Assembly (NCBI GenBank): GCA_016789725.1 | Contig: JAEUQN010000012.1 | Span: forward strand, 1,448 to 65,447 | Direction of reading: 5' to 3' | Source of the DNA: Blastocatellia bacterium | Lineage (GTDB): Bacteria > Acidobacteriota > Blastocatellia > RBC074 | Length of the DNA stretch: 64,000 nucleotides | Part shown: piece by piece, positions 3 to 52,548 of the stretch | Layout: each line of letters starts with the position of its first letter | Position numbering within the stretch: the stretch's first letter is position 1 | Program-made: the position numbers and the translations under genes | Notes under the pieces: generated by a model | The model's input: the letters and a program-made list of their open reading frames with translations, nothing else | Database searches by the model: none | Told to the model about the DNA's origin: nothing

Positions 3-590
3 CCCTTCATTGAGTTGTGTCCCGAAGACCAGTTGTTAATCGGAAAAAAAATAATGTGGCAGCCGGACTCTGTGCCGGATGAATCGCGCCTGAGTTTGTT
101 CATGCACGAACTGATTCACGTTCCACATGACGAAGAACGAAGCCGCAACCAACTGCTGACGCTGCGCAATTTTGTCCGACAGGTAAACACGATTCCGAAC
201 GCCTGGGATCAAATTGAAACAATCGTGGGCGTGAGCATCAGCTATTTGGAAATTCGCGTTTATGATTGTGATGAATTTCTGCGTACGCTGAAAACACACG
301 GCTATGCGGTGAATTCGTGGATGGAAAAGGTCAGTCGTTGGGTGGGACACGGGCATCGCTTCGATAGCGCACGTGCTTTGACCGAGCATCGCCACGAACC
401 GCAATTGCACTTTGTGAATGATCGCGCGGACGAAGAAGCCTACGGCCCCAATTATTTTTTTGTGCATTGGGACGCGCAATCCGTGTACGCCAAACGTGGC
501 TGGATGCTGGGGCGCATCGCCGCAGGCCGCACCCACGCACACCATTCCGCGACGCCGCAGGAAGTCGAAGCCTATTTGAATGGCGTATAG
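3..590 (+). CDS. Hypothetical protein, probably truncated by the window start; contains HExxH (HELIH)
   Basis: The frame is open from position 3 (ccc ttc att gag ttg tgt...) to TAG at 588-590. It contains LFMHELIHV and a His-rich C-terminus; no family recognised. Confidence 0.55.
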   Translation, partial: PFIELCPEDQLLIGKKIMWQPDSVPDESRLSLFMHELIHVPHDEERSRNQLLTLRNFVRQVNTIPNAWDQIETIVGVSISYLEIRVYDCDEFLRTLKTHGYAVNSWMEKVSRWVGHGHRFDSARALTEHRHEPQLHFVNDRADEEAYGPNYFFVHWDAQSVYAKRGWMLGRIAAGRTHAHHSATPQEVEAYLNGV

Positions 591-657
591 GCTTGCACGA
601 ATAATTGATTCGGGCATAATTGGTTTGACCAAATACCTTCTGATTGTAGGGCAAATC

Positions 658-3600
658 ATGAACAGCAAAGCGAAAAAAAGATTCGGTCTAATCCTGGTTG
701 CCAGTGTTGTCTTGTGGATTGCGGGCGGGCACTGGGAACACTTTGTATCCGCACAGAGCAAAATAGATTTTGTCCGTGATATTCAACCGATTTTGCAGAC
801 CTCCTGTGCGCCTTGTCACTTTGGTGACAAGCCTAAAGCTGATCTGCGGCTCGACAGCAAATCGCTAACTCTCAAGCTTGTCGTGCCAGGCAATAGCAAA
901 GACTCGCGGCTTGTGCATCGTGTCCTCGGCTTGAACGGCGAAAAGCGGATGCCATTGGGACGCGAGGCGTTGAGCGCCGCGCAAATCGAACTGTTGCAAC
1001 GCTGGATTGATGAAGGTGCCAATTGGCCTGACACCGCCTCGGTCGAAGGTGGAATCAAGAAGCATTGGGCGTTCGTCGCGCCCGTTCGCGCTGCTGTTCC
1101 TGCGGTCCGAAACAAAACGTGGGTCCGCAATCCGATTGATAATTTCATCCTTGCCAAACTTGAGCAGGAAAACCTTACACCTTCACCGGAGGCCGATAAA
1201 ATCACGCTGTTGCGGCGCTTGAGCCTGGATTTGATTGGGCTGCCACCAACACCAGAAGAAGTGGATGCGTTTCTGAAAGACACTTCACCCCAAGCTTACG
1301 AAACGCAAGTTGAGCGACTATTGGCCTCGCCGCATTACGGCGAACGTTGGGCGCGTCATTGGCTGGATGCGGCGCGTTATGCGGATTCCGATGGCTTTGA
1401 AAAAGACAAGATGCGAAACGTCTGGTTTTATCGGGATTTGGTCATCAACGCGCTGAATCGTGATTTACCTTACGATCAATTTATCATCGAACAAATCGCG
1501 GGCGATCTGCTGCCCAACGCGACCCAGAATAATCTGGTCGCTACAGGCTTCCTGCGCAATTCGATGATTAATGAAGAGGGCGGTGTTGATCCTGAACAGT
1601 TTCGGATGGAAGCGATGTTTGATCGAATGGACGCCATTGGCAAAGGGGTTTTGGGCATCACCATTCAGTGTGCACAGTGCCACAATCACAAATTCGATCC
1701 GCTCAAACAGGAAGAGTATTACAAGCTCTTTGCCTTCCTGAACAATTCCGACGAAGGCAGCATTGTTGTTTACACGTCCGAAGAGCAGATGCAGCGCGCG
1801 AACATCCTTTCCGGCACACGTGAAATCGAAGCCAAATTGCAAGAGATCAAACCCGACTGGCTGGCACAAATGAACGCGTGGGAAGAGCGTGTGAAGAACG
1901 ACAAGGGCGAATGGAAAGTGATTCAGCCTGCGGTGGATGATATTTCGACGGGGGGGCAAAAATATTTTCCGCTCAAGGATGGATCGTTTTTGGCGCAAGG
2001 CTACGCGCCGACCAAACACCGCGTAAAGCTGACGACGAAAACCGATGTCCAAAATATCACCGCGTTCAGAATTGAAATGCTGAACGATCCGAATTTGCCA
2101 ATGCTCGGCCCCGGTCGTTCGCCGAAAGGCACGTTTGGCTTGACCGATGTCTTAGTCGAAGCCGCGCCTGCCAGCGACGAAAAGAAAGTCAGCAAAATCA
2201 AAATCGTCAATGCGACAGCGGACGTGAATCCGCCCGAAAAAGAACTCGACGCGATGTTCTATGACAAAAGCAATCGCCGCCGCGTCGAAGGCCCGATTGC
2301 TTTTGCGATTGACGACAAAGATGAAACGGCGTGGGGCATTGATGTTGGTCCCGGCTTGCGCAACGTCCCGCGCAAGGCGGTCTTCAATTTTGAAAAACCA
2401 ATTGCGAATGATGGCGGCACACTGCTGACGATTTACCTGCGGCAAAATCACGGCGGTTGGAACAGTGACGATAACATGAACAACAACCTCGGTCGTTTCC
2501 GGTTGTCTATCACCACCGCGCCGAATGCGGTTGCCGATCCGCTGCCCGCCAACGTGCGAGAGATTCTAAGCATCCCGCGCGATAAACGGACGAAAGCGCA
2601 AGTGGACACCGTCTTCAGTTATTGGCGCACGACGGTTAGCGAGTGGCGCGACTACAACCAACAAATTGCAGGACTTTGGAAACAATATCCGACCGGGACG
2701 TCGCAACTGGTGATGAATGAACGACACGACGCGCGGACAACCAGTATTCTCAAGCGCGGCGATTTTCTCCGACCGGATCGTCCCGTGAAGGCGGGCGTTC
2801 CCGCGTTCTTGAATCCATTGCCCGAAGGCGAGCCGGTCAATCGTTTGACGTTTGCCAAATGGTTGGTGGATCGCCAATCGCCCACCACGGCGCGAGCGGC
2901 TGTCAATCGCCTTTGGCAATCCTATTTCGGCACTGGCCTCGTGGCGACTTCGGAAGATCTAGGCAAGCAAAGCGAAGCGCCCTCGCATCCTGAGTTGTTG
3001 GATTGGTTGGCCGTCGAATTGATGGAGCCGAGTTCACAGTTCACAGTTCACAGTTCACAGCTTGCTGCCAAATCTACGGCGAACCGCGAACAACACGCTG
3101 CGAACTGGTCTCTCAAGAATGTTCATCGGTTAATTGTTAACTCGGCAACATATCGTCAATCGTCGAAAATTACACCACAATTGCAGGAAAAAGACCCCTT
3201 CAATCGGTTGCTGGCGCGTGGCCCAAGATTTCGGGTCGAGGGCGAAATCGTCCGTGATATTGCACTAGCGGCAAGCGGTTTATTAAATGCGAAAGTCGGT
3301 GGCGCATCCGTCTTCCCGCCTTCGCCGGAGTTTTTGTATTTGCCACCGACAAGTTACGGCCCCAAAAATTGGTATGAAGACAAAGGCGAGAACCGGTATC
3401 GTCGTGGCTTGTATACGTTCCGCTATCGCAGCGTGCCGTATCCGATGTTGCAAACCTTCGATGTGCCAAATGGCGATATTTCGTGTGTGCGCCGCGCGAA
3501 ATCCAACACGCCGCTGCAAGCCTTGACGACGCTGAATGAAACCACATTTTTAGAAGCGGCGCGCGCGCTGGCTGTAAAAACGATCAAGGAAGGCGGCACC

Positions 3601-3864
3601 ACCGATGCGCAAAAAGTCGAATTCGCATTTCGCCGCGTGACAGCACGTAAGCCAACCATCCAGGAAGCGACAGCCTTGCTCGCATTGATGAAGCGACAAC
3701 AAGAACGTTTCATCGCGGGAGAATTGAATCCCTGGAATTTTGCCACGAATGATCCTGACAAACCGTTTGCCTTGCCGAAAGGCATGACGATGGAACAGCT
3801 CGCAGCGTGGACGGCTGTCACGCGTGTGGTGCTGAATTTGGATGAAGCGATTACGAAAGAGTAA
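658..3864 (+). CDS. Planctomycete-type cytochrome c / DUF1549 / DUF1553 (PSD1) exported protein
   Basis: Signal peptide, IDFVRDIQPIL..SCAPCH (CxxCH), HWAF..P, NPIDNFI, YGERWARHWLDAARYADSDG, IQCAQCHNHKFDP, PSHPELLDWLA, NTPLQAL, C-terminal LNLDEAITKE. ATG 658 preferred over 580. Confidence 0.93.
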   Translation: MNSKAKKRFGLILVASVVLWIAGGHWEHFVSAQSKIDFVRDIQPILQTSCAPCHFGDKPKADLRLDSKSLTLKLVVPGNSKDSRLVHRVLGLNGEKRMPLGREALSAAQIELLQRWIDEGANWPDTASVEGGIKKHWAFVAPVRAAVPAVRNKTWVRNPIDNFILAKLEQENLTPSPEADKITLLRRLSLDLIGLPPTPEEVDAFLKDTSPQAYETQVERLLASPHYGERWARHWLDAARYADSDGFEKDKMRNVWFYRDLVINALNRDLPYDQFIIEQIAGDLLPNATQNNLVATGFLRNSMINEEGGVDPEQFRMEAMFDRMDAIGKGVLGITIQCAQCHNHKFDPLKQEEYYKLFAFLNNSDEGSIVVYTSEEQMQRANILSGTREIEAKLQEIKPDWLAQMNAWEERVKNDKGEWKVIQPAVDDISTGGQKYFPLKDGSFLAQGYAPTKHRVKLTTKTDVQNITAFRIEMLNDPNLPMLGPGRSPKGTFGLTDVLVEAAPASDEKKVSKIKIVNATADVNPPEKELDAMFYDKSNRRRVEGPIAFAIDDKDETAWGIDVGPGLRNVPRKAVFNFEKPIANDGGTLLTIYLRQNHGGWNSDDNMNNNLGRFRLSITTAPNAVADPLPANVREILSIPRDKRTKAQVDTVFSYWRTTVSEWRDYNQQIAGLWKQYPTGTSQLVMNERHDARTTSILKRGDFLRPDRPVKAGVPAFLNPLPEGEPVNRLTFAKWLVDRQSPTTARAAVNRLWQSYFGTGLVATSEDLGKQSEAPSHPELLDWLAVELMEPSSQFTVHSSQLAAKSTANREQHAANWSLKNVHRLIVNSATYRQSSKITPQLQEKDPFNRLLARGPRFRVEGEIVRDIALAASGLLNAKVGGASVFPPSPEFLYLPPTSYGPKNWYEDKGENRYRRGLYTFRYRSVPYPMLQTFDVPNGDISCVRRAKSNTPLQALTTLNETTFLEAARALAVKTIKEGGTTDAQKVEFAFRRVTARKPTIQEATALLALMKRQQERFIAGELNPWNFATNDPDKPFALPKGMTMEQLAAWTAVTRVVLNLDEAITKE
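3031..3106. repeat. In-frame heptamer inverted-repeat insertion, (AGTTCAC)x4 ... (GCGAACN)-type arm
   Basis: AGTTCAC x4 at 3031-3058; GCGAACC GCGAACA ACACGCT GCGAACT at 3079-3106 is an imperfect reverse complement. Encodes SSQFTVHSSQ...ANREQHAANW. Confidence 0.85.
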
Positions 3865-16974: not shown

Positions 16975-18558
16975 ATGACTGAGAACAACCCCTACGATCA
17001 GATTCCTTACACCAGTTATCCGTTCGCGCAAACGCATCCGAATCGGTTGGCGACGTTGGCGAGGCTGCACAGCTTGCAGCCCACGCCCATTACGAACTGC
17101 CGTGTCTTGGAGGTTGGTTGCGGCGATGGCGCAAATCTGATTCCGATGGCATTGATGCTGCCGAACAGCCAGTTTGTGGGATTCGACCTGGCCGCAAAAC
17201 CTGTCCAGCAGGGACAACAAATCATCGCTGATCTTGAACTCACAAACATCAAGCTGCTTCAGGCTGACTTGATGGAGTTTGAGGACGAACCCTTCGATTA
17301 CATCATCACGCACGGTTTGTATGCCTGGGTTCCGCAGGTTGTGCAGGAGGGCTTGATGGCCCTGTGCGAACGATTGCTGACGCCGAACGGTGTTGCCTAC
17401 ATTAGCTACAACGCTTATCCCGGCTGCCACCTGCGCGAGATGACGCGTGAGATGATGCTCTTTCATATTCGTGGCAACGACAACCCGCACGACCGCATGA
17501 ATCAAGGCTTGTCGTTGCTGAAATTTATTCTCAGCCAGTATCCATCAGAGTCAAAAGCGCGCGAAGATTTGTATGGAGCTATCGTGTTTGAGCAATTCGA
17601 TACGCTTGCGCGGCATCGGCATCGGGAACAGGTATATCACGACCACTTGGCCGAGTATTATCGGCCTGCCTATTTCTATCAATTTGCCGCACACGCGGCG
17701 CAGCACGGCATGCAATATCTGGCCGAGGCCACTTTCTCCGACATGCAGGATTATCAATTTCCTCCCTCGGTGCGCGAATTACTGGCCCAGTTTGACGATG
17801 AGCATATCGTTCACCGCGAGCAATATCTGGATTTCCTCAAAGGCCGCTCGTTTCGACAGACCTTGTTATGCCGCGATGATCTCAAAGTGCAACGCGCGAT
17901 CAAGGCTGAACAAATCAAGGCGTTTTATTTCTCTTCCGAGATTGAAACGATGTCGGCGCAACCGGATTTGTCGCCTCACGTGGTCGAGGCCTTTGAAGGC
18001 CCCAAAGGCGCACGGTTGCAAATTGATTTCCCCTTAGCCAAAGCAGCGTTGGTGATTTTGAAAGAATCGTGGCCGCGTCAATTCGATTGGGAAGAGTTGC
18101 AATCCGCAGCGGTCGCGCGCGTGATGGAATTTCAGCGCGAATCTGTCACCGCAGACGAACTGCAAGCTTTGACCGAAATCATGTTTGCCGCTTACGGTTC
18201 CGGCGTGATTCATCTGCATTCGCACCGCCCTGAAATGCAACTCCAGGTCACAACGCATCCGGTGGCGAATCGTCTGGCACGTTGGCAGGCGCAACACGGT
18301 GCAGTTGTGACAAATGTGCTGCACGCCAGTGTGATTCTGGAAAATGAATTGAGCCAGCGACTGTTACAATTGATGGATGGCACGCGCGATCACGATGCGT
18401 TGAGAGCCGATTTGACGACAGCGATGGAAACTCGCCTGCCTCTCAAATTGAACGAAGAAACCACGATTGAGGATCGCGCTGCGTTGCAGAAAATGATTAC
18501 CGAAACGCTCGACGCGAACCTGCAAAGCTGTGCCCGGCTGGCCTTGTTGGTCGGATAA
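16975..18558 (+). CDS. Class I SAM-dependent methyltransferase with methyltransferase-regulatory domain (Rickettsia PKMT-like)
   Basis: YDQIPYTSYPFAQTHP, RVLEVGCGDGANLIPMA, FDYIITHGLYAWVP, NGVAYISYNAYPG, HDHLAEYYRPAYFYQF, REQYLDFL.GRSFRQTLLC. Confidence 0.88.
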   Translation: MTENNPYDQIPYTSYPFAQTHPNRLATLARLHSLQPTPITNCRVLEVGCGDGANLIPMALMLPNSQFVGFDLAAKPVQQGQQIIADLELTNIKLLQADLMEFEDEPFDYIITHGLYAWVPQVVQEGLMALCERLLTPNGVAYISYNAYPGCHLREMTREMMLFHIRGNDNPHDRMNQGLSLLKFILSQYPSESKAREDLYGAIVFEQFDTLARHRHREQVYHDHLAEYYRPAYFYQFAAHAAQHGMQYLAEATFSDMQDYQFPPSVRELLAQFDDEHIVHREQYLDFLKGRSFRQTLLCRDDLKVQRAIKAEQIKAFYFSSEIETMSAQPDLSPHVVEAFEGPKGARLQIDFPLAKAALVILKESWPRQFDWEELQSAAVARVMEFQRESVTADELQALTEIMFAAYGSGVIHLHSHRPEMQLQVTTHPVANRLARWQAQHGAVVTNVLHASVILENELSQRLLQLMDGTRDHDALRADLTTAMETRLPLKLNEETTIEDRAALQKMITETLDANLQSCARLALLVG

Positions 18559-18562
18559 AATT

Positions 18563-20419
18563 ATGCGTGACGAATTATTAGGGTATTACGAACGCGAATT
18601 GATTTTCCTGCGACAAATGGGCGCGGAGTTCGCCGAGAAATATCCAAAGATCGCTGGACGATTGTCGCTTGAACCGGACAAATGCGAAGACCCGCACGTG
18701 GAGCGGATGATCGAAGCGTTTGCCTTTTTGACGAGCCGCGTTCATCTGAAGATTGACGACGAGTTTCCTGAAATTACGGAATCGCTGCTGAATGTCCTCT
18801 ATCCGCATTACCTCGCGCCGATTCCTTCGATGTCTATCGCACAATTTGGCCTGGACCCACAGCAAGGAAAGCTGACGACGGGATACCAAATCGAACGGGG
18901 GACGACGCTTTATTCGCGTCCGGTGCAGGGCACGCCGTGTCGCTTTCGGAGCAGTTATCCCGTGACATTGTGGCCGATTGAAGTCGCTTCTGCCGCGCTC
19001 GAATCGCTTGATCCGGTGGGCGCGCGTGGCAAATGGTCAGACGCCGTTGTCCGCATCAATCTGCGCTGTTTGCACAATACCAAACTCAGCGAATTAAAAA
19101 TCAAAACGGGCGAAACAGAAGTCGGTATTGCGTCGTTGCGCTTTTACCTGAACGGCGAACCACAGCTTGTTTATCCGCTCTATGAATTGATCTTTAACGA
19201 ACAGGCGCACATCACGAAAGTCGAATTGCGCGACAGCAAATCCCGCAAGACGATTGAGTTGCCGCCGAGCGTCATTCAACCGGTTGGTTTTGCTGGCGAT
19301 GAAGCTCTGCTTGAATATTCGCCGCGTTCGTTTCAGGGCTATCGGTTGCTGACGGAATACTTCGCCTTTCCTGACAAGTTTTTATTCTTTGATGTGAACG
19401 GATTGGACCAGGCGGCGCGGGCCGGATTTGGGGAGCAAGTTGAAATTTTGCTATACCTGAAAGATGTCACGCCGCCGCGCGCAAAAGTGGATGCAGGCAC
19501 CTTCCAACTCGGCTGCACTCCGATCATCAATCTCTTCAAAAAAGTTGCCGAGCCGATCCAACTCACCCAACAACAGAACGAATACCACGTCATCCCCGAC
19601 ATTCATCGGCAATCTGTGACCGAAATTGCTTCGATTGATGCGGTGACAACGGTTGATCCGTACTTACAGCAATCGCGCGAATTCCAGCCCTTTTATTCGT
19701 ATCGTCACGCGTATGAGCGCGAACAGCAGGGCGCGTTCTGGTATGCGTCGCGGCGACCTTCTCATCGAATGGAAGATGCTGGAACAGAGATTTATTTATC
19801 GCTGGTGGATTTGAATTTCAGCCCAAAAGTGCCTGCTGTCGAAACGATTACCTGCCACGTTACCTGCACCAATCGGGACCTGCCCGCGCGCTTACCGTTT
19901 GGCGGACGCGAAGGTGATTTTGAGGTCGAAAATGCCGGGCCGCTCGCGCGCGTAAAATGTTTGCGCAAACCGACCGAAACGCTGCGGCCACCGATGCGGC
20001 GCGGCGCGCATTGGCGTTTGATTTCGCATCTGTCGCTCAATCATTTGTCCATTGTCGAGGGCCAGCGCGCTGGAGACCCAGAGGCGTTGCGCGAAATCCT
20101 GATGCTCTATGACTTCATGGATTCATCCGCAACGCGCAAACAGATTTTAGGTCTGAGCAAAATCAACAGTCGTCGTGTTGTCCGTCAAACTGGTTCGCGC
20201 ATCGGAACCGGCTTTGTGCGCGGCATCGAAACCACGATGGAATTTGATGAAACGCAATTCGTTGGCAGTGGCGTGTTTTTGTTCGCGTCGGTGCTGGAAC
20301 GATTTTTAGGTTTGTACGCCTCCGTGAACTCATTTACGCAACTGGTCGCCAAAAGCGAACAGCGTGAAGGAATCTTGAAAAAGTGGAAGCCACGAGCGGG
20401 CGAAATGAGCCTCTTGTAA
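18563..20419 (+). CDS. tssF: T6SS baseplate subunit TssF
   Basis: YYERELIFLRQMGAEFAEKYPKIAGRL, DPHVERMIEAFAFL, GYRLLTEYFAFPDKF, CTPIINLF, WRLISHLSLNHL, YASVNSFTQL. Confidence 0.97.
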   Translation: MRDELLGYYERELIFLRQMGAEFAEKYPKIAGRLSLEPDKCEDPHVERMIEAFAFLTSRVHLKIDDEFPEITESLLNVLYPHYLAPIPSMSIAQFGLDPQQGKLTTGYQIERGTTLYSRPVQGTPCRFRSSYPVTLWPIEVASAALESLDPVGARGKWSDAVVRINLRCLHNTKLSELKIKTGETEVGIASLRFYLNGEPQLVYPLYELIFNEQAHITKVELRDSKSRKTIELPPSVIQPVGFAGDEALLEYSPRSFQGYRLLTEYFAFPDKFLFFDVNGLDQAARAGFGEQVEILLYLKDVTPPRAKVDAGTFQLGCTPIINLFKKVAEPIQLTQQQNEYHVIPDIHRQSVTEIASIDAVTTVDPYLQQSREFQPFYSYRHAYEREQQGAFWYASRRPSHRMEDAGTEIYLSLVDLNFSPKVPAVETITCHVTCTNRDLPARLPFGGREGDFEVENAGPLARVKCLRKPTETLRPPMRRGAHWRLISHLSLNHLSIVEGQRAGDPEALREILMLYDFMDSSATRKQILGLSKINSRRVVRQTGSRIGTGFVRGIETTMEFDETQFVGSGVFLFASVLERFLGLYASVNSFTQLVAKSEQREGILKKWKPRAGEMSLL

Positions 20420-20422
20420 ATG

Positions 20423-20580
20423 AAATCAAAAGGCAAAAGGCAAAAAGCAAAAGGTTGGCACTTTATTTTTCTCTTTGTTTTCCTGTGGTAACAACGATGG
20501 CTTTTAGAAATCCTAAAAATTATGGCTTGGGTTCCGAACAGACGTTTGCCCTTTGCCTTTTGCCTGTTGCCTTTTGATTT
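20423..20580. repeat. Heptamer (AGGCAAA)n / (TTTGCCT)n inverted-repeat element between tssF and tssG
   Basis: AAATCAAA AGGCAAA AGGCAAA AAGCAAA AGG (20423-20454) and TTTGCCC TTTGCCT TTTGCCT GTTGCCT TTTGATTT (20545-20580) flank an AT-rich ~90-nt loop. Confidence 0.88.
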
Positions 20581-20590
20581 TCCCAGTTTT

Positions 20591-21625
20591 ATGTCTGAGT
20601 CCACTACAACTCAAAAACCGACTACTCTCGAAGACGTGCTCTTCGCAGAACCCTATCGGTTTGATTTCTTTCAGGCGGTGCGCTTATTGGAGCGCGTGTA
20701 CGCTCTGCGCCGTCCGGTCGGACACGCCGCCGAACCTGCCCGCGAAGCCGTTCGCTTTCGCACGATGACGGGCTTGAATTTCCCGGCGAGTCAAATTTAC
20801 GCTCTGCAACGCGAGAGCGATGACCCCGACCACCCCGCGCCGCCACAGATGACCGTGGCCTTTATGGGGTTGACCGGGCCGTCGGGCGTGATGCCCCATG
20901 CTTACACCGAGTTGTTGATGGAACGGTTGCGCAACAAAGACCGGGCGATGATTGAGTTTTTGGATCAATTCAATCATCGCGTGCTGTCGCTGTTTTTTCG
21001 GGCGTGGGAAAAGTATCGCTTCCCGATTGGGGTCGAACGCGGACTGGATGATCGCTTCACCGAATTCCTCTTTGACATCGTTGGTTTAGGCACACGCGGC
21101 TTGCGCCATCGCTTCAGCTTTGCCGATGAAGGATTATTGAGTTACGGCGGGTTGATTGCGAACCAACCACATTCGGCAAGCGCGATGACAGGCATCCTGA
21201 GCGATTATTTCGGCGTCTCTGCGGAGATCGAACAATTCAAAGGGCAATGGCTCAAACTTGACCCCGAAAGCCTGTCCACGCTTGGTCGTGCGAATCATCA
21301 ATTAGGCGTCAGCACTGTTGCGGGTGCGCGTGTGTGGGATCAGCAATCCAAGTTGCGGGTGCGCTTCGGACCGCTGAGCTTTGACAAATTCACAGCGTTT
21401 CTTCCCAACGGCACAGCTTATAAATCAGCGACCGAACTCACTCAGTTTTTTGCCGGGATGGAATTTGATTTCGACCTCCAGTTGGTGCTGCAAAAAGCTC
21501 AGGTTCCATTCTGCAAATTGTCCACGAAGTCCAAACCGGCGTTAGGTTGGACGACGTGGTTGAAAACGAAACCCTTTCGTCAAGACGACACGCAAGTCGT
21601 TTTGCGCGCTGGTCACTCGGCGTAA
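20591..21625 (+). CDS. tssG: T6SS baseplate subunit TssG
   Basis: PYRFDFFQAVRLLE, FMGLTGPSGVMP..YTE, FLDQFNHR..SLFFRAW.KYR, LGWTTWL. ATG 20591; the upstream extension in the ORF track translates the repeat arm. Confidence 0.96.
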   Translation: MSESTTTQKPTTLEDVLFAEPYRFDFFQAVRLLERVYALRRPVGHAAEPAREAVRFRTMTGLNFPASQIYALQRESDDPDHPAPPQMTVAFMGLTGPSGVMPHAYTELLMERLRNKDRAMIEFLDQFNHRVLSLFFRAWEKYRFPIGVERGLDDRFTEFLFDIVGLGTRGLRHRFSFADEGLLSYGGLIANQPHSASAMTGILSDYFGVSAEIEQFKGQWLKLDPESLSTLGRANHQLGVSTVAGARVWDQQSKLRVRFGPLSFDKFTAFLPNGTAYKSATELTQFFAGMEFDFDLQLVLQKAQVPFCKLSTKSKPALGWTTWLKTKPFRQDDTQVVLRAGHSA

Positions 21626-48607: not shown

Positions 48608-49189
48608 ATGGTCACAAATCTAAATCGCAAACAGCATTACTACACGTTGGAAGAATATTTCGCGCTCGAAAAAGTGGGCGATGCGCGCTACGAATATTGG
48701 GACGGCGAAATCTTTTGCATGAGCGGCGGCTCGAAAGAGCATTATCGTTTGACGCGCAATATTTATAGGTGGCTTGATCGTGTTGTTCAGGGCGGAAAAT
48801 GTGAGGCTTTTATGCCTGACACGCCAATCACAACGCCAAAACTTCCGCCCTATCGGTATCCCGATGCGAGCGTCGTGTGTGGCGAAAGCAGATTTGAAAA
48901 CATTCATGGCATTGATGCATTGGTGAATCCGATACTGATTGTCGAAGTGCTTTCACCCACCACAGAACTAGCGGACAAAGAAGACAAACGAATTGCTTAT
49001 CAAGCTATAGAAAGCCTGCAAGAATATGTGCTGATTGCGCAGGATAAGGTCGAAGTCACGCACTACACGCGCAAGGGCGATTTGTGGTTCCGCGACGTTG
49101 TTTCCGACCTTTCAACCTCCCTTCAATTGACCTCGCTCGCAAGCACGATCACACTGGCAGAACTCTATCGCGGCGTCGTTTCGCAATAG
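48608..49189 (+). CDS. Uma2-family (DUF820) PD-(D/E)XK endonuclease-like protein
   Basis: TLEEYFALE, RYEYWDGEIFCMSGGS..H, YPDASVVC, NPILIVEVLSPTT, LQEYVLIAQD. Confidence 0.93.
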   Translation: MVTNLNRKQHYYTLEEYFALEKVGDARYEYWDGEIFCMSGGSKEHYRLTRNIYRWLDRVVQGGKCEAFMPDTPITTPKLPPYRYPDASVVCGESRFENIHGIDALVNPILIVEVLSPTTELADKEDKRIAYQAIESLQEYVLIAQDKVEVTHYTRKGDLWFRDVVSDLSTSLQLTSLASTITLAELYRGVVSQ

Positions 49190-49209
49190 ACCTACGGAGC
49201 AAATACGCT

Positions 49210-52200
49210 ATGAAACACCGCGCAAAATCCGCCCAACATTTTCTTGTCGTGTTGTTCGTAGCGGCGGCTGTTGCCCTCTTTACCTTCGAGCAATCTTCGC
49301 ACACGCAGACCAAAATTGATTTCAATCGCGACATTCGCCCGATCCTGTCGGACAAATGTTTTGCCTGCCACGGCCCTGACGCTGCAGCGAAAAAGATCAA
49401 ATTGCGCCTGGATTCAGAACCCGCTGCTCTGACAGCGATTGCACCTGGTAAGCCGGAAGAATCAAAGCTCATCAAACGCATCACCCACAAAGACGAAACG
49501 TTGCGCATGCCGCCTGTGGATTCTGGGCGCACGCTCGCGCCACGCGAAATTGAATTGCTGACGGAATGGATTCGACAGGGCGCAAACTGGCAATCGCATT
49601 GGTCATTTATTCCGCCCATTCGCCCGGCCTTGCCTCCAGTCAAAAACACCGCGTGGCCGAAAAATGCCATTGATTATTTCGTCCTGGCACGGCTGGAAAA
49701 AGAAGGGGGGCAGCCTTCACCCGAAGCGGATCGCGCGACATTGTTGCGACGCGTATCGCTTGATTTGACGGGCTTGCCGCCGACAGTGCAGGAATTGGAT
49801 GCCTTTCTCAACGACAAGTCGCCGAACGCGTATGAAAAGGTGGTGGATCGCCTGCTCGCTTCACCTCGCTACGGCGAGCGGATGGCGTTCAAATGGCTCG
49901 ACGCGGCGCGGTATGCGGACACGAATGGCTACCAGATTGACGGCGAACGTTCGATGTGGCGCTGGCGCGATTGGGTCATTGCGGCGTTCAATGCGAACAA
50001 GCCGTTTGATGAATTCACCATCGAACAGCTCGCAGGCGATTTGTTGCCGAACCCCCGCAAAGACCAGATCATTGCCACCGCCTTCAATCGCAACCATCGC
50101 ACGAATTCGGAAGATGGTCTCATACCCGAAGAATATCGCGTCGAATATGTCGTAGATCGCGTGGACACGACTTCGACGGTGTTTCTGGGCCTGACGATGG
50201 GCTGCGCGCGTTGCCACAATCACAAATACGACCCGCTCACACAGAAAGAGTATTACCAGCTTTTCGCGTACTTCAATTCGATTCCCGAAGACGGGCGCGC
50301 GAACAATTACGGCAACTCTGCGCCTTGGATTTCGGCTCCGACGGCGGCGCAGGAAGCCGAGATGCAGAAGATTGAGCGCGACATCAACCGCATCAAAACC
50401 CGGCTCAGTCAGGAGATCAAACTGCACGCTGCGGACCAAAGCCGCTGGGAAAAATCGTTGCGCGCCGAGTCCCGAACGCAGTGGTTTCCAAAGGATAATT
50501 TGCTCTTTCAGCATGCGCTGGATGATGGCGCGCAGCCATTCGTCAGCGAGACGATGATGAAGGTTGCAATGGATAAGCCGGATGAAGAGGTCGTCGAAAG
50601 GAAAGACGCCAAAAAGCTCGAACAGAGCTTCAAAAACGGCACGCCGAAATTCGTCGCTGCACCAACCGGGCAGGGCGTCGCATTCGACAAAAACCTTTTG
50701 TTTGATGCAGGCAAAATCGCTGATTTCAATTTCCGCGACCGGCTAAAGGATTACAAAGATCAGTTCACCATCTCGGCGTGGTTTTATGCGGAATCGGAAC
50801 AAAGCGGCGCGCTGGTCACGCATATGCAAGATAGTGCGGGCGAGACGGACAACAACCTGCCGAAAGGACGTGGTTACGGTTTGTTCGTGGCGAACGGCAA
50901 ACTGCATTTCAATCTCGTCAGCGTGTGGGCAGACGATTCGTTTCGCGTCGAAACCGAAAGCGCGATCCCGCTGAAAGAATGGCAGCACGTGATTGCGACG
51001 TTCGATGCGACGGAGCCGTACGAGAGGGTGCAGATTTTCCTGAACGGACAAAAGCAAAAGCTGAAAATCAATTTGCCACGCCTGTTCCGCACGTTCGGTG
51101 ATGCGAATGCAAATTTGCGCATCGGTGCAGGCGGCGGCCCAGCGTTTCGCTTTGCGGGAATGATTGATGAAGTGCGTGTGTACAAATCGCTGCCGGATGC
51201 GAATGACATAGCGATGCTGTCGTGCGCGGATTCGCTCGAAAAGATTGCTGCGACCCCTGTTGCCAAGCGGACGGAAGCGCAACGACTCAAAATCACAAAC
51301 GCTTGGTTGGACGCCGCTGCGCCTGCGACGGCGGCTGACCTTTTGCAGCAACTGCGCCAACAGAAGCAACGCAAGACCGCGCTCGAAGCCGAATTTTCGA
51401 CGTTGATGGTGATGCAGGAAATGCCGGAGCCGCGTCCGACCTTTTTGTTACGACGTGGCGCGTACGATTTGCCGACCGAAAAAGTCGCGCGTGCACTGCC
51501 TGCTTCTTTGCACGGTACAAGTGTGCAACCAAGCAATCGCCTTGAATTCGCGCGTTGGCTCGTCAGCCCGGAAAATCCATTGACAGCGCGTGTGACGGTG
51601 AACCGCTTCTGGCAACAATTCTTTGGCATCGGCTTGGTGAAAACAACGGAAGACTTTGGGGCACAAGGCGAGTTGCCGTCGCATCCTGAGTTGTTGGATT
51701 GGCTGGCGGTGGAATTTATGCGACCGAGTTCACAGTTAGCAGTTCACAGTTCACCGGAAAAAGGCCGCGAACTGCGAACCGCGAACTGGGATGTCAAAGC
51801 CTTGCTCAAAACTATTGTGACGAGTGCGACGTACCGGCAAGCCAGTAAAATTACTCCGACCACCGACCACCGACCACCGACCACCGATGATTCCGACAAC
51901 CGCCTGCTCGCCCGTGGCCCGCGCTATCGCCTCTCTGCCGAAATGATCCGTGACCAGGCGTTGTTTGTCTCCGGCTTGCTGGTTGAAAAGCTCGGCGGCC
52001 CTTCGGTCAAACCGTATCAGCCGGAAGGGCTGTGGAAGGATATGACCTTCTCGAACATGACCAATTACGGTCAAGCGAAAGGCGAAGGGTTGTGGCGGCG
52101 CAGTCTGTACACGTTCTGGAAACGGACGGTGCTGAATCCGAGCATGTTGGTCTTCGATGCGACGGCGCGCGAATTCTGCAACGTGCGCGAAACCCGCACC

Positions 52201-52548
52201 AATTCGCCGTTGCAGGCATTGAACCTGATGAACGACGTCACCTACGTCGAAGCCGCTCGCTTCATTGCTGAGCGCATGTTGCAGGGAAACGGCTCCGCTG
52301 AACAGCGCCTGACGTGGGCTTTTCGCGCTTTGACATCGCGCCTGCCCGATGCGCAAGAGTTGCAAGTGCTGCGCGACAATTTGAACGCGCAATTAGATTA
52401 CTTTCGCGCGCATCCAGACGACGCTGCGAAGTTGTTGGCGATGGGAGAGAAGCGCAATGATGCAGCATTAAAACCCACGGAACTTGCCGCCTACACGACT
52501 GTTGCCAGCTTGCTGCTGAATCTGGATGAAGTGATTACCAAACAGTAA
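49210..52548 (+). CDS. Cytochrome c / DUF1549 / LamG-like / DUF1553 exported protein
   Basis: IDFNRDIRPILSDKCFACHGPD, WLDAARYADTNG, GCARCHNHKYDP, FTISAWF...WQHV...FAGMIDEVRVY (LamG), PSHPELLDWLA, TNSPLQAL, LLNLDEVITK. Confidence 0.93.
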   Translation: MKHRAKSAQHFLVVLFVAAAVALFTFEQSSHTQTKIDFNRDIRPILSDKCFACHGPDAAAKKIKLRLDSEPAALTAIAPGKPEESKLIKRITHKDETLRMPPVDSGRTLAPREIELLTEWIRQGANWQSHWSFIPPIRPALPPVKNTAWPKNAIDYFVLARLEKEGGQPSPEADRATLLRRVSLDLTGLPPTVQELDAFLNDKSPNAYEKVVDRLLASPRYGERMAFKWLDAARYADTNGYQIDGERSMWRWRDWVIAAFNANKPFDEFTIEQLAGDLLPNPRKDQIIATAFNRNHRTNSEDGLIPEEYRVEYVVDRVDTTSTVFLGLTMGCARCHNHKYDPLTQKEYYQLFAYFNSIPEDGRANNYGNSAPWISAPTAAQEAEMQKIERDINRIKTRLSQEIKLHAADQSRWEKSLRAESRTQWFPKDNLLFQHALDDGAQPFVSETMMKVAMDKPDEEVVERKDAKKLEQSFKNGTPKFVAAPTGQGVAFDKNLLFDAGKIADFNFRDRLKDYKDQFTISAWFYAESEQSGALVTHMQDSAGETDNNLPKGRGYGLFVANGKLHFNLVSVWADDSFRVETESAIPLKEWQHVIATFDATEPYERVQIFLNGQKQKLKINLPRLFRTFGDANANLRIGAGGGPAFRFAGMIDEVRVYKSLPDANDIAMLSCADSLEKIAATPVAKRTEAQRLKITNAWLDAAAPATAADLLQQLRQQKQRKTALEAEFSTLMVMQEMPEPRPTFLLRRGAYDLPTEKVARALPASLHGTSVQPSNRLEFARWLVSPENPLTARVTVNRFWQQFFGIGLVKTTEDFGAQGELPSHPELLDWLAVEFMRPSSQLAVHSSPEKGRELRTANWDVKALLKTIVTSATYRQASKITPTTDHRPPTTDDSDNRLLARGPRYRLSAEMIRDQALFVSGLLVEKLGGPSVKPYQPEGLWKDMTFSNMTNYGQAKGEGLWRRSLYTFWKRTVLNPSMLVFDATAREFCNVRETRTNSPLQALNLMNDVTYVEAARFIAERMLQGNGSAEQRLTWAFRALTSRLPDAQELQVLRDNLNAQLDYFRAHPDDAAKLLAMGEKRNDAALKPTELAAYTTVASLLLNLDEVITKQ
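51727..51787. repeat. In-frame heptamer inverted-repeat insertion, same element as 3031-3106
   Basis: AGTTCAC AGTTAGC AGTTCAC AGTTCAC (51727-51754) and GCGAACT GCGAACC GCGAACT (51767-51787). Confidence 0.85.
51856..51887. repeat. Perfect coding heptamer tandem repeat (CCGACCA)x4 + CCGA
   Basis: Read directly; encodes PTTDHRPPTTD. Confidence 0.9.

Follow-up and report, generated by a model that had tools for sequence, protein, structure and literature searches.

Heptamer simple repeats have long been noted, and left unexplained, in several bacterial phyla. Among other short repeats, miniature inverted-repeat transposable elements (MITEs) combine terminal inverted repeats with a target-site duplication and a related autonomous insertion sequence (IS), and the system of repetitive extragenic palindromes (REPs) consists of hairpin repeats that flank, and are recognised by, a Y1 (REP-associated tyrosine, RAYT) transposase. 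Rehm et al. 2015 (PMC4692102) describe the units GGGAATC in Xanthomonas and GGGGAYT in Nostoc, mostly intergenic, in some cases inverted and variable between relatives, and MacGregor 2015 (PMC4679880) describes TAACTGA repeats of the Beggiatoaceae that lie upstream of start codons, with stop codons limiting their insertion into coding DNA. Both papers cite Mrazek et al. 2007 for a general excess of heptamers, as well as the heptanucleotides of Calothrix (short tandemly repeated repetitive sequences, STRR), and PMC4692102 also refers to an idea of polymerase slippage. The Rickettsia palindromic elements (RPEs), as outlined in a MITE review (PMC10969869), measure about 150 bp, lie in frame and have a conserved family sequence and peptide. 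Here we describe a window (the whole analysed stretch of 64,000 nucleotides from contig JAEUQN010000012.1 of assembly GCA_016789725.1) from a soil or sludge acidobacterium of the Blastocatellia, in which a hairpin built of 7-base repeats lies inside one protein loop of two large genes.

These hairpins resemble heptanucleotide long simple sequence repeats (LSSRs; head-to-tail units of 5-11 nt) in that both an excess of period 7 and a preference for intergenic DNA are found here and, as in the published heptamer repeats, about four copies are typical, arrays lie near gene ends, some form inverted stem-loop pairs and close relatives vary. They differ from those repeats in having a host from the Acidobacteriota, 84 unit classes in one genome and half of the arrays paired as hairpins. 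A fifth of the arrays are read in frame within proteins, whereas coding DNA is reported to be poor in the published repeats, for which the concerted evolution among paralogs seen here is not known to have been described. They are not cyanobacterial STRR, the host belonging to the Blastocatellia (Acidobacteriota) and not to the heterocystous cyanobacteria. Like the RPEs, they are small dispersed palindromes, in frame in unrelated genes and read as an extra peptide compatible with the fold; unlike those RPEs, they have inserts of 57-72 nt, 7-base units, variable spacers, a peptide unshared between species and an Acidobacterium as host. With REPs, bacterial interspersed mosaic elements (BIMEs) and MITEs they have in common that short intergenic hairpins occur in many copies, and a separate REP-like palindrome is found in the same loop of a sister species. 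For the heptamer hairpins, unlike these, no target-site duplication, fixed ends or associated transposase was shown, and their spread among PSD1 paralogs takes flanks of the donor along, which gene conversion would lead one to expect. A literature search with subscription journals outside its coverage found no account of such 7-base repeats from Acidobacteria or DUF1553 genes.

We consider it probable that the inserted segment is a copy, translated as part of an in-frame open reading frame (ORF), of a heptamer-armed palindromic repeat distributed across the lineage, which the loop tolerates, which short-tract gene conversion keeps uniform among paralogs and which is rapidly replaced between species.

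Heptamer hairpins in frame in two PSD1 genes

The two host genes, both on the + strand and recognised as ORFs with Pfam matches, encode large multidomain proteins. Gene A (580..3864, hereafter also paralog C33a) specifies a 1094-aa PSCyt1/PSCyt2 (DUF1549)/PSD1 (DUF1553) protein with E-values of 1.3e-90 for PSCyt2, 1.7e-88 for PSD1 and 1.1e-07 for PSCyt1, and gene B (49084..52548, C33b) a 1154-aa PSCyt1/PSCyt2/Laminin_G_3/PSD1 protein with E-values of 4.7e-94 for PSD1 and 1.8e-91 for PSCyt2. Membership of the PSD1 family is clear from scores of 296.6 (gene A) and 314.8 bits (gene B) against a cut-off of 28.5, and PSCyt1 and PSCyt2 accompany the domain in both proteins. In gene A the Pfam match to PSD1 is broken into two stretches, with the break at the insert.

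Each insert consists of an (AGTTCAC)x4-type arm, a spacer and units of GCGAAC type, read in frame on the + strand. At site A (3031-3106) the left arm (3031..3058) is an exact run of four AGTTCAC units, translated as SSQFTVHSS, for which Tandem Repeats Finder (TRF) reports period 7, 4.3 copies and 100% matches; sequence and fold place a spacer of 20 nt at 3059..3078, and the right arm (3079..3106) is an imperfect complement of the left, made up of GCGAACC, GCGAACA, a 7-nt gap and GCGAACT, with GCGAAC starting at 3079, 3086 and 3100. At site B (51727-51787), where both arms are defined by sequence and TRF, the left arm (51727..51754) reads AGTTCAC, AGTTAGC, AGTTCAC, AGTTCAC and is translated as SSQLAVHSS, the spacer (51755..51766, from sequence and fold) is 12 nt long and the right arm (51767..51787) is GCGAACT, GCGAACC, GCGAACT. 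The 14-mer AGTTCACAGTTCAC, equal to two units, has four matches in the window at no more than one mismatch, against 0.01 expected, and none of 100 shuffles reached four. Both sites fall between the motifs LLDWLAVE(L/F)M and W(S/D)(L/V)K, and the two copies agree in their arms and in some 40 nt of the flank to the left, while their spacers differ. The 22-mer GCATCCTGAGTTGTTGGATTGG lies upstream of both sites in identical form; the genome holds one further copy, in paralog C616, which makes three in all.

An initial annotation of this DNA had claimed heptamer hairpins in frame in two DUF1553 genes with identical upstream DNA, and sequence, TRF, the long ORFs and Pfam bear out the hairpins as the 22-mer bears out the flank. 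The right arm is not an exact complement of the left: the sense strand has A.C mismatches and the other strand G.U pairs. It was correct in expecting only a few residues at this place in the usual DUF1553 protein: we counted the residues from LLDWLA to W in 79 homolog loci (Bryobacterales, Terriglobia, Planctomycetota and Verrucomicrobiota; 26 of the 79 not resolved by the motif) and found exactly 7 in 32 of the 53 resolved outside homologs, compared with 31 in gene A and 26 in gene B. Because 7 is the normal number outside, gene A has 24 extra residues (72 nt) and gene B 19 (57 nt).

Contigs from three DNA studies and from one RNA-library run span site A with 0 gaps and no indels listed, and the insert is therefore not peculiar to the assembly. 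This evidence from sequencing runs consists of contigs, at shares of at most 0.55, in which rare variants would be hidden, and the RNA-library contig across the insert is no proof of transcription. Uncovered parts of the window and a piling of contig ends at 2968-3031 are uninformative because many paralogs share that region. We also predicted the structure of the PSD1 piece with AlphaFold2 from a 30-row alignment, which yielded a mean predicted local distance difference test score (pLDDT) of 58.5 and a predicted template modelling score (pTM) of 0.43, too poor for a fold search; the model hints that the insert, spanning residues 72-99 of that piece, is coil between two helices, with a pLDDT of 35-43.

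The PSD1 loop in paralogs and related species

The genome to which the window belongs (G000) is a metagenome-assembled genome (MAG) that totals 7.77 Mb on 636 contigs, with a completeness of 88.6% and a contamination of 2.6%. Alignment of its paralogs at the loop places the AGTTCAC hairpin at the identical codon of nine PSD1 genes, one of them cut by a contig end, so that the hairpin reported for two paralogs, correctly for both, belongs to a larger set. Each of the nine copies has four left-arm units. The hairpin also occurs at two G000 places outside the PSD1 family, and other PSD1 paralogs of the genome carry different heptamer peptides in the loop. The same is true of relatives, where other heptamer arrays take its place: in 13 same-genus genomes and two sister genera (one of these represented by G015 only, which is flagged unpublished), the orthologs of the two window genes have inserts at that position built of other units, among them GCGGATT/AATCCGC, ACGCGGA, CCGACCA and AATCTCA. 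The loop is occupied in 13 of the 13 same-genus genomes sampled and is a hot spot throughout the genus, and the insert is absent from the genes of the more distant genera G017, G023 and G027. Each of the 64 loops measured has a length divisible by three.

The carriers are not each other's closest relatives. In a tree of 70 PSD1 domains from which the loop columns had been removed, the G000 carriers fall into seven groups, each beside genes of other species with different loops; C33a, for instance, neighbours L003 and C33b neighbours L111, both from genome G005, while C185b stands next to L112 and L115 and C616 next to L136. The other-species members of these groups are 83-95% identical to the carriers in the flanks, and their loops are unrelated, to the point that orthologs 95% identical in the flanks have no loop 10-mer in common. 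We compared 10-mer sharing among 55 loops of at least 36 nt, as a description of the pairs. Between genomes, 57 of the 73 pairs with flanks at least 85% identical share no 10-mer and 5 share a fraction of at least 0.2. Within genomes, the 95 pairs with flanks below 80% include 47 that share none and 35 that share at least 0.2; when G000 is excluded, the corresponding figures are 30 and 8 of 50. Pairs between genomes with flanks below 80% number 1238, of which 1046 share no 10-mer and 17 reach 0.2.

Several MAG records carry unexpected names. The PSD1 genes of L032, L048, L049, L054 and L088 are 67-82% identical to the window gene and are labelled Heliobacteriaceae or Heliomicrobium; these labels misfit a Blastocatellia-type gene content and look like mislabelling.

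Tracts of high identity centred on the hairpin

Profiles of identity between paralogs rise sharply around the hairpin. Gene B is 95% identical to C616 over 148 nt (51672-51819, + strand as for the tracts that follow) and 55% identical in the rest of the PSD1 region; with C127 the values are 96% over 139 nt (51687-51825) and 57%, and with C185a 94% over 147 nt (51673-51819) and 57%. Gene A has a comparable tract with C599, 93% identical over 159 nt (3007-3165) against 74% in the rest of the region, and its segment 2994-3059 is 91% identical to C185b, with 53% elsewhere. The tract of gene B extends about 30-55 nt past the hairpin on each side, into the coding flanks. Downstream of its hairpin C616 reads WDVKALLKT, as G000 paralogs do, where its ortholog reads WDVKHIIRT, and C185b is a mosaic whose left part is of the gene A type and whose right part is of the gene B type. 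Because some 140-150 nt around the hairpin are 94-96% identical in paralogs that are otherwise 55-57% identical, we attribute the tracts to short-tract gene conversion. The same spikes, together with the seven ortholog groups that have different loops in other species, support the suggestion in the initial annotation that the segment was gene-converted.

Heptamer repeats as a class in the genome and the family

The loop arrays belong to a much larger class. Exact tandem arrays of at least three copies number 144 for period 7 in G000, compared with 19, 26, 4 and 4 for periods 5, 6, 8 and 9, and TRF finds 486 arrays of period 7 against 42 each for periods 6 and 8. After merging, 482 TRF period-7 arrays remain in 84 unit classes, the commonest being AAAAGGC (91 arrays), AAAATCC (51) and ACCACCG (33). 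An inverted partner, defined as at least two complementary units within 200 nt, accompanies 200 of the 381 intergenic and 24 of the 101 coding arrays, where a control with backwards units gave 0 and 2, and about half of the G000 arrays are thus pairs of hairpin type. The division into 101 arrays in through-running ORFs and 381 in intergenic DNA covers all heptamer units and counts an array as in-ORF if its frame runs without a stop for 60 codons or more to each side; by this measure 21% of arrays lie in ORFs against 67% of 2000 random positions, which is a preference for intergenic DNA.

Among the 101 in-gene arrays, 27 fall in ORFs of the PSCyt/PSD1 family, at three recurrent places. Good Pfam domains were present in 20 of the 20 other host ORFs checked (drawn from 33 such ORFs with a length of 450 aa or more); among these hosts are three CHAT-TPR proteins, five Ser/Thr kinases, AcrB, ArgRS, RsmB, a P450-reductase fusion, a FecCD-ABC fusion and a DUF1501 protein, and the arrays lie mostly between domains. 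The orientation of arrays inside genes is selected, with a bias to hydrophilic readings: AAAATCC gives KIQNPKS in 17 cases and the hydrophobic peptide of the opposite sense in none.

The excess of period 7 is a property of the bacterial family. TRF period-7 arrays reach 63 per Mb in G000 and, in samples of 280-400 kb from each of four relatives, 35 per Mb in G006 of the same genus and 47 and 89 per Mb in G016 and G014 from other genera of the family, compared with none in 400 kb of G029, a more distant member of the class. The units of the sampled relatives differ from those of G000.

Dispersed hairpins outside the PSD1 family

Tandem AGTTCRC (two units) occurs in 14 of 41 sampled genomes of the family, with a patchy distribution, and reaches 85 matches in G012, 51 in G003, 23 in G009, 144 in G038 and 57 in G056, with 21 in G000; the backwards control gave 0-1 per genome. 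The matches often form +/- pairs 40-100 nt apart, in the spacers between genes or beside tRNA genes, and some of the sequences between the arms are shared. One exact 22-mer with imperfect units is found at 8 loci of G003 and 2 of G012, and a search for the shared imperfect right-arm pattern at 2 mismatches also catches perfect tandem arrays, which confounds its counts. The AGTTCRC/GCGAACT hairpin is not specific to PSD1, being dispersed and mostly intergenic in related genomes; in G000 it survives mainly in PSD1 loops. A related SSQF(T/A)V...TANW loop is present in G012 (L122) and in one other MAG (L049, L088), and the AGTTCAC type of hairpin is therefore older than the species.

A second family is a non-heptamer, REP-like palindrome (GGTAC..GAGCGGTAGCGAC, loop, complement) with at least 10 dispersed copies in G000, among them copies on C122, C185, C244 and C432. 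It lies in frame in that same PSD1 loop in G011 (L118, L129) and in another MAG (L069), and the PSD1 loop thus accepts dispersed palindromes of more than one kind. No direct duplication at the borders, or target-site duplication, was seen at sites A and B. Profiles of SbcD and SbcC, searched against the genome with a possible cleavage of hairpins in mind, gave matches below the cut-off alone (56.9 and 85 bits, respectively, on different contigs).

Folding and strand asymmetry

Both hairpins fold more stably on the strand opposite to the coding sense. Hairpin A gives -25.5 kcal/mol on the sense strand (z -1.8) and -35.9 kcal/mol on the antisense strand (z -3.6), and hairpin B -26.0 kcal/mol (z -3.2) and -35.3 kcal/mol (z -5.9), respectively. 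The differences between the arms are transitions, which produce the A.C mismatches of the sense strand and the G.U pairs of the antisense strand. Among 56 loops, z falls below -2 for 17 when the sense strand is folded, for 29 with the antisense strand and for 31 if either strand counts, with median values of -1.3 for sense and -2.2 for antisense; the other 25 form no significant hairpin on either strand. A conserved structure in the mRNA is disfavoured by this weaker folding of the sense strand, and Rfam, run on the whole window, gave 0 matches at gathering scores.

An intergenic copy in another genome (L224), upstream of a gene on the same strand, has the same AGTTCAC...GCGAACT asymmetry. Strand-biased transition pressure and selection against stable mRNA hairpins are both possibilities for the bias towards the antisense fold. 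Avoidance of stop codons, the exact complement having TGA in one frame, was considered as the full cause of the GCGAAC right arm and rejected in view of the like asymmetry of this intergenic copy.

Proposed explanation and alternatives

On the explanation that we favour, the architecture of the class is an array of units, a spacer and an array of a roughly complementary 7-base unit, and such arrays fill the intergenic spacers of this family of Blastocatellia (Acidobacteriota). An array also persists inside a gene where disordered extra residues are tolerated, provided that its length is a multiple of three and that no frame of the unit contains a stop codon. The PSD1 loop after HPELLDWLAVEx, between two predicted helices, is one such place, occupied across the genus. 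Conversion tracts of about 100-160 nt, with the hairpin at their centre, would keep the loops of distant paralogs in one genome alike, and between species the loop is replaced so fast that near-identical orthologs come to have unrelated loops. Spread would be recombinational, possibly begun by breaks or stalls at the hairpin, which would act at the level of DNA and not of mRNA. The peptide would be a passenger and not an adaptation, and a function, if there is one, is more likely at the DNA level than at that of mRNA or protein. We hold it doubtful that the segment is in addition a self-renewing cassette, in which the hairpin provokes breaks or template switches and repair from any other array with that unit, whether in a paralog or in an intergenic copy, rewrites the loop, a movement of short palindromes free of transposase; were this so, exposed loops of a large, probably periplasmic protein family would diversify between species and stay uniform within a genome.

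Several points weigh against the favoured explanation. No insertion or conversion event was seen directly, the tracts pointing to conversion through their identity profiles; upstream, moreover, HPELLDWLAVE is in any case a conserved stretch of the protein. A shared repeat of about 140 nt in a MAG of 636 contigs could also produce chimeric joins of paralogs, which would blur the pairing of N- and C-terminal parts. The pair counts serve as a description, because kin genomes are not independent and only 2-5 paralogs per relative were sampled, and the coding status of arrays was taken from stop-free frames and not from gene models. The poor structural model only hints that the insert is a surface loop between two predicted helices; the neutrality of the peptide is presumed, and selection for structure might contribute, given that 31 of the 56 loops have a significant fold on one strand or both.

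Four other readings of the data were weighed against it. If vertical inheritance alone were at work, one ancestral PSD1 insert would have been duplicated with its gene, and the peptide would be a conserved part of a subfamily. All nine carriers do lie in one broad PSD1 subfamily, and the related loop of G012 and the other MAG shows this hairpin type to predate the species, but the loop-free tree has already largely refuted this reading, which we regard as very improbable: the carriers are spread over seven ortholog groups whose other-species members keep 83-95% of the flanks and have unrelated loops, the loop DNA is 94-100% identical among paralogs that elsewhere share 55-57%, and the C185b mosaic shows exchange inside the hairpin. 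The mobile mini-element put forward in the initial annotation has the indirect support of the AGTTCRC/GCGAACT family dispersed in related genomes, some copies of which share spacers. A further reading makes the hairpin a MITE- or REP-like element that inserted into each paralog independently, at a preferred target, with a transposase encoded elsewhere. In its favour are the dispersed hairpins with their shared imperfect units and spacers, and the REP-like palindrome found at this PSD1 position in G011 and L069; yet neither site has a visible target-site duplication, no insertion event or link to a transposase is shown, spacer and arm lengths vary among copies, and the tracts run some 30-55 nt into the coding flanks and switch residues to the version of the paralog, which insertion alone does not explain. 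We think an autonomous-like element of this kind unlikely. The companion claim that a permissive loop is targeted stands in so far as the loop is a genus-wide hot spot, but not as to targeting: with in-frame arrays in 20 of 20 unrelated ORFs checked, specific targeting is unneeded, and tolerance plus conversion among paralogs suffice.

That the arrays are contingency loci, in which slippage of the 7-base unit switches the large PSCyt/PSD1 genes on and off, could be argued from the in-frame arrays of 4-5 units in many members of a large family, where a change of one unit shifts the frame, and from the phase-variable 7-bp repeats that are known in Haemophilus. We judge it highly improbable, seeing that all nine paralogs have four left-arm units, that the contigs of four runs list no indels (contigs drop rare variants), that 64 of 64 loops are in frame and that, among the matches listed, one alone had an internal stop (TAG). 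It is also quite improbable that the segment is a functional feature, whether as a hairpin that controls translation or the decay of the mRNA, or as a peptide under selection that forms a surface loop particular to the species. The 31 loops that beat shuffles in folding, the strong bias of in-gene orientation to hydrophilic readings and the occupancy of the loop in every same-genus genome sampled would agree with a function, but folding is weaker on the mRNA strand, 25 of the 56 loops lack a significant hairpin, Rfam gives no family for the window and the peptide is unconserved even between orthologs with 95% flank identity. Nor do the folding data support the mRNA hairpin suggested in the initial annotation; the peptide novelty that it offered as the alternative holds as a description, the segment being in frame and read as translated, and goes no further.

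On the favoured explanation, of a tolerated repeat homogenised among paralogs and replaced between species, the locus adds to what is known of heptamer repeats a clear natural example, judged from reading frames, of such repeats translated in many real proteins. It adds also a hot-spot loop that turns over faster than 5% protein divergence, and a clean signature, with a hairpin at its centre, of gene conversion in short tracts between paralogs that are only distantly related. The system lends itself to asking how palindromes spread without an obvious transposase and what share they have in the protein length variation of uncultured lineages. Pipelines for orthology and annotation can be misled by these loops, because they break assemblies and split domain matches, as in the PSD1 match of gene A that falls into two pieces.

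Further arrays and neighbouring features

Gene B contains a second in-frame heptamer array at 51856..51887 (+ strand; sequence and TRF), in which 4.6 copies of CCGACCA are translated as PTTDHRPPTTD in a second loop of PSD1, after TYRQAS. In other G000 paralogs this second loop, after TYRQSS, carries (AAAATCC)n, translated as PKSKIQNPKS. A third hot spot lies directly before PSCyt2 (DUF1549), at protein positions of about 147-180, where (AAAATCC)n is in frame in the paralogs C206, C233, C24, C521 and C616.

Outside this family, the three CHAT-TPR paralogs (C110:46319-46390, C30:10005-10125 and C77:46316-46387) have one and the same in-frame heptamer hairpin at an identical place in the CHAT domain, with arms of CCGACCA type read as PVVGGRWSV and NQPPVTSHQP, which suggests a second paralog family with concerted behaviour. 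An intergenic member of the repeat class is present in the window itself, where (CAAAAGG)x4 at 20427-20454 begins 8 nt past the stop codon of an ORF at 18530-20419; about 90 nt beyond it, at 20545-20576, follows an inverted (TTTGCCT)x4.6, some 15 nt before an ATG at 20592. The gene that comes after gene A encodes a DUF1501 protein (E-value 3.7e-156).

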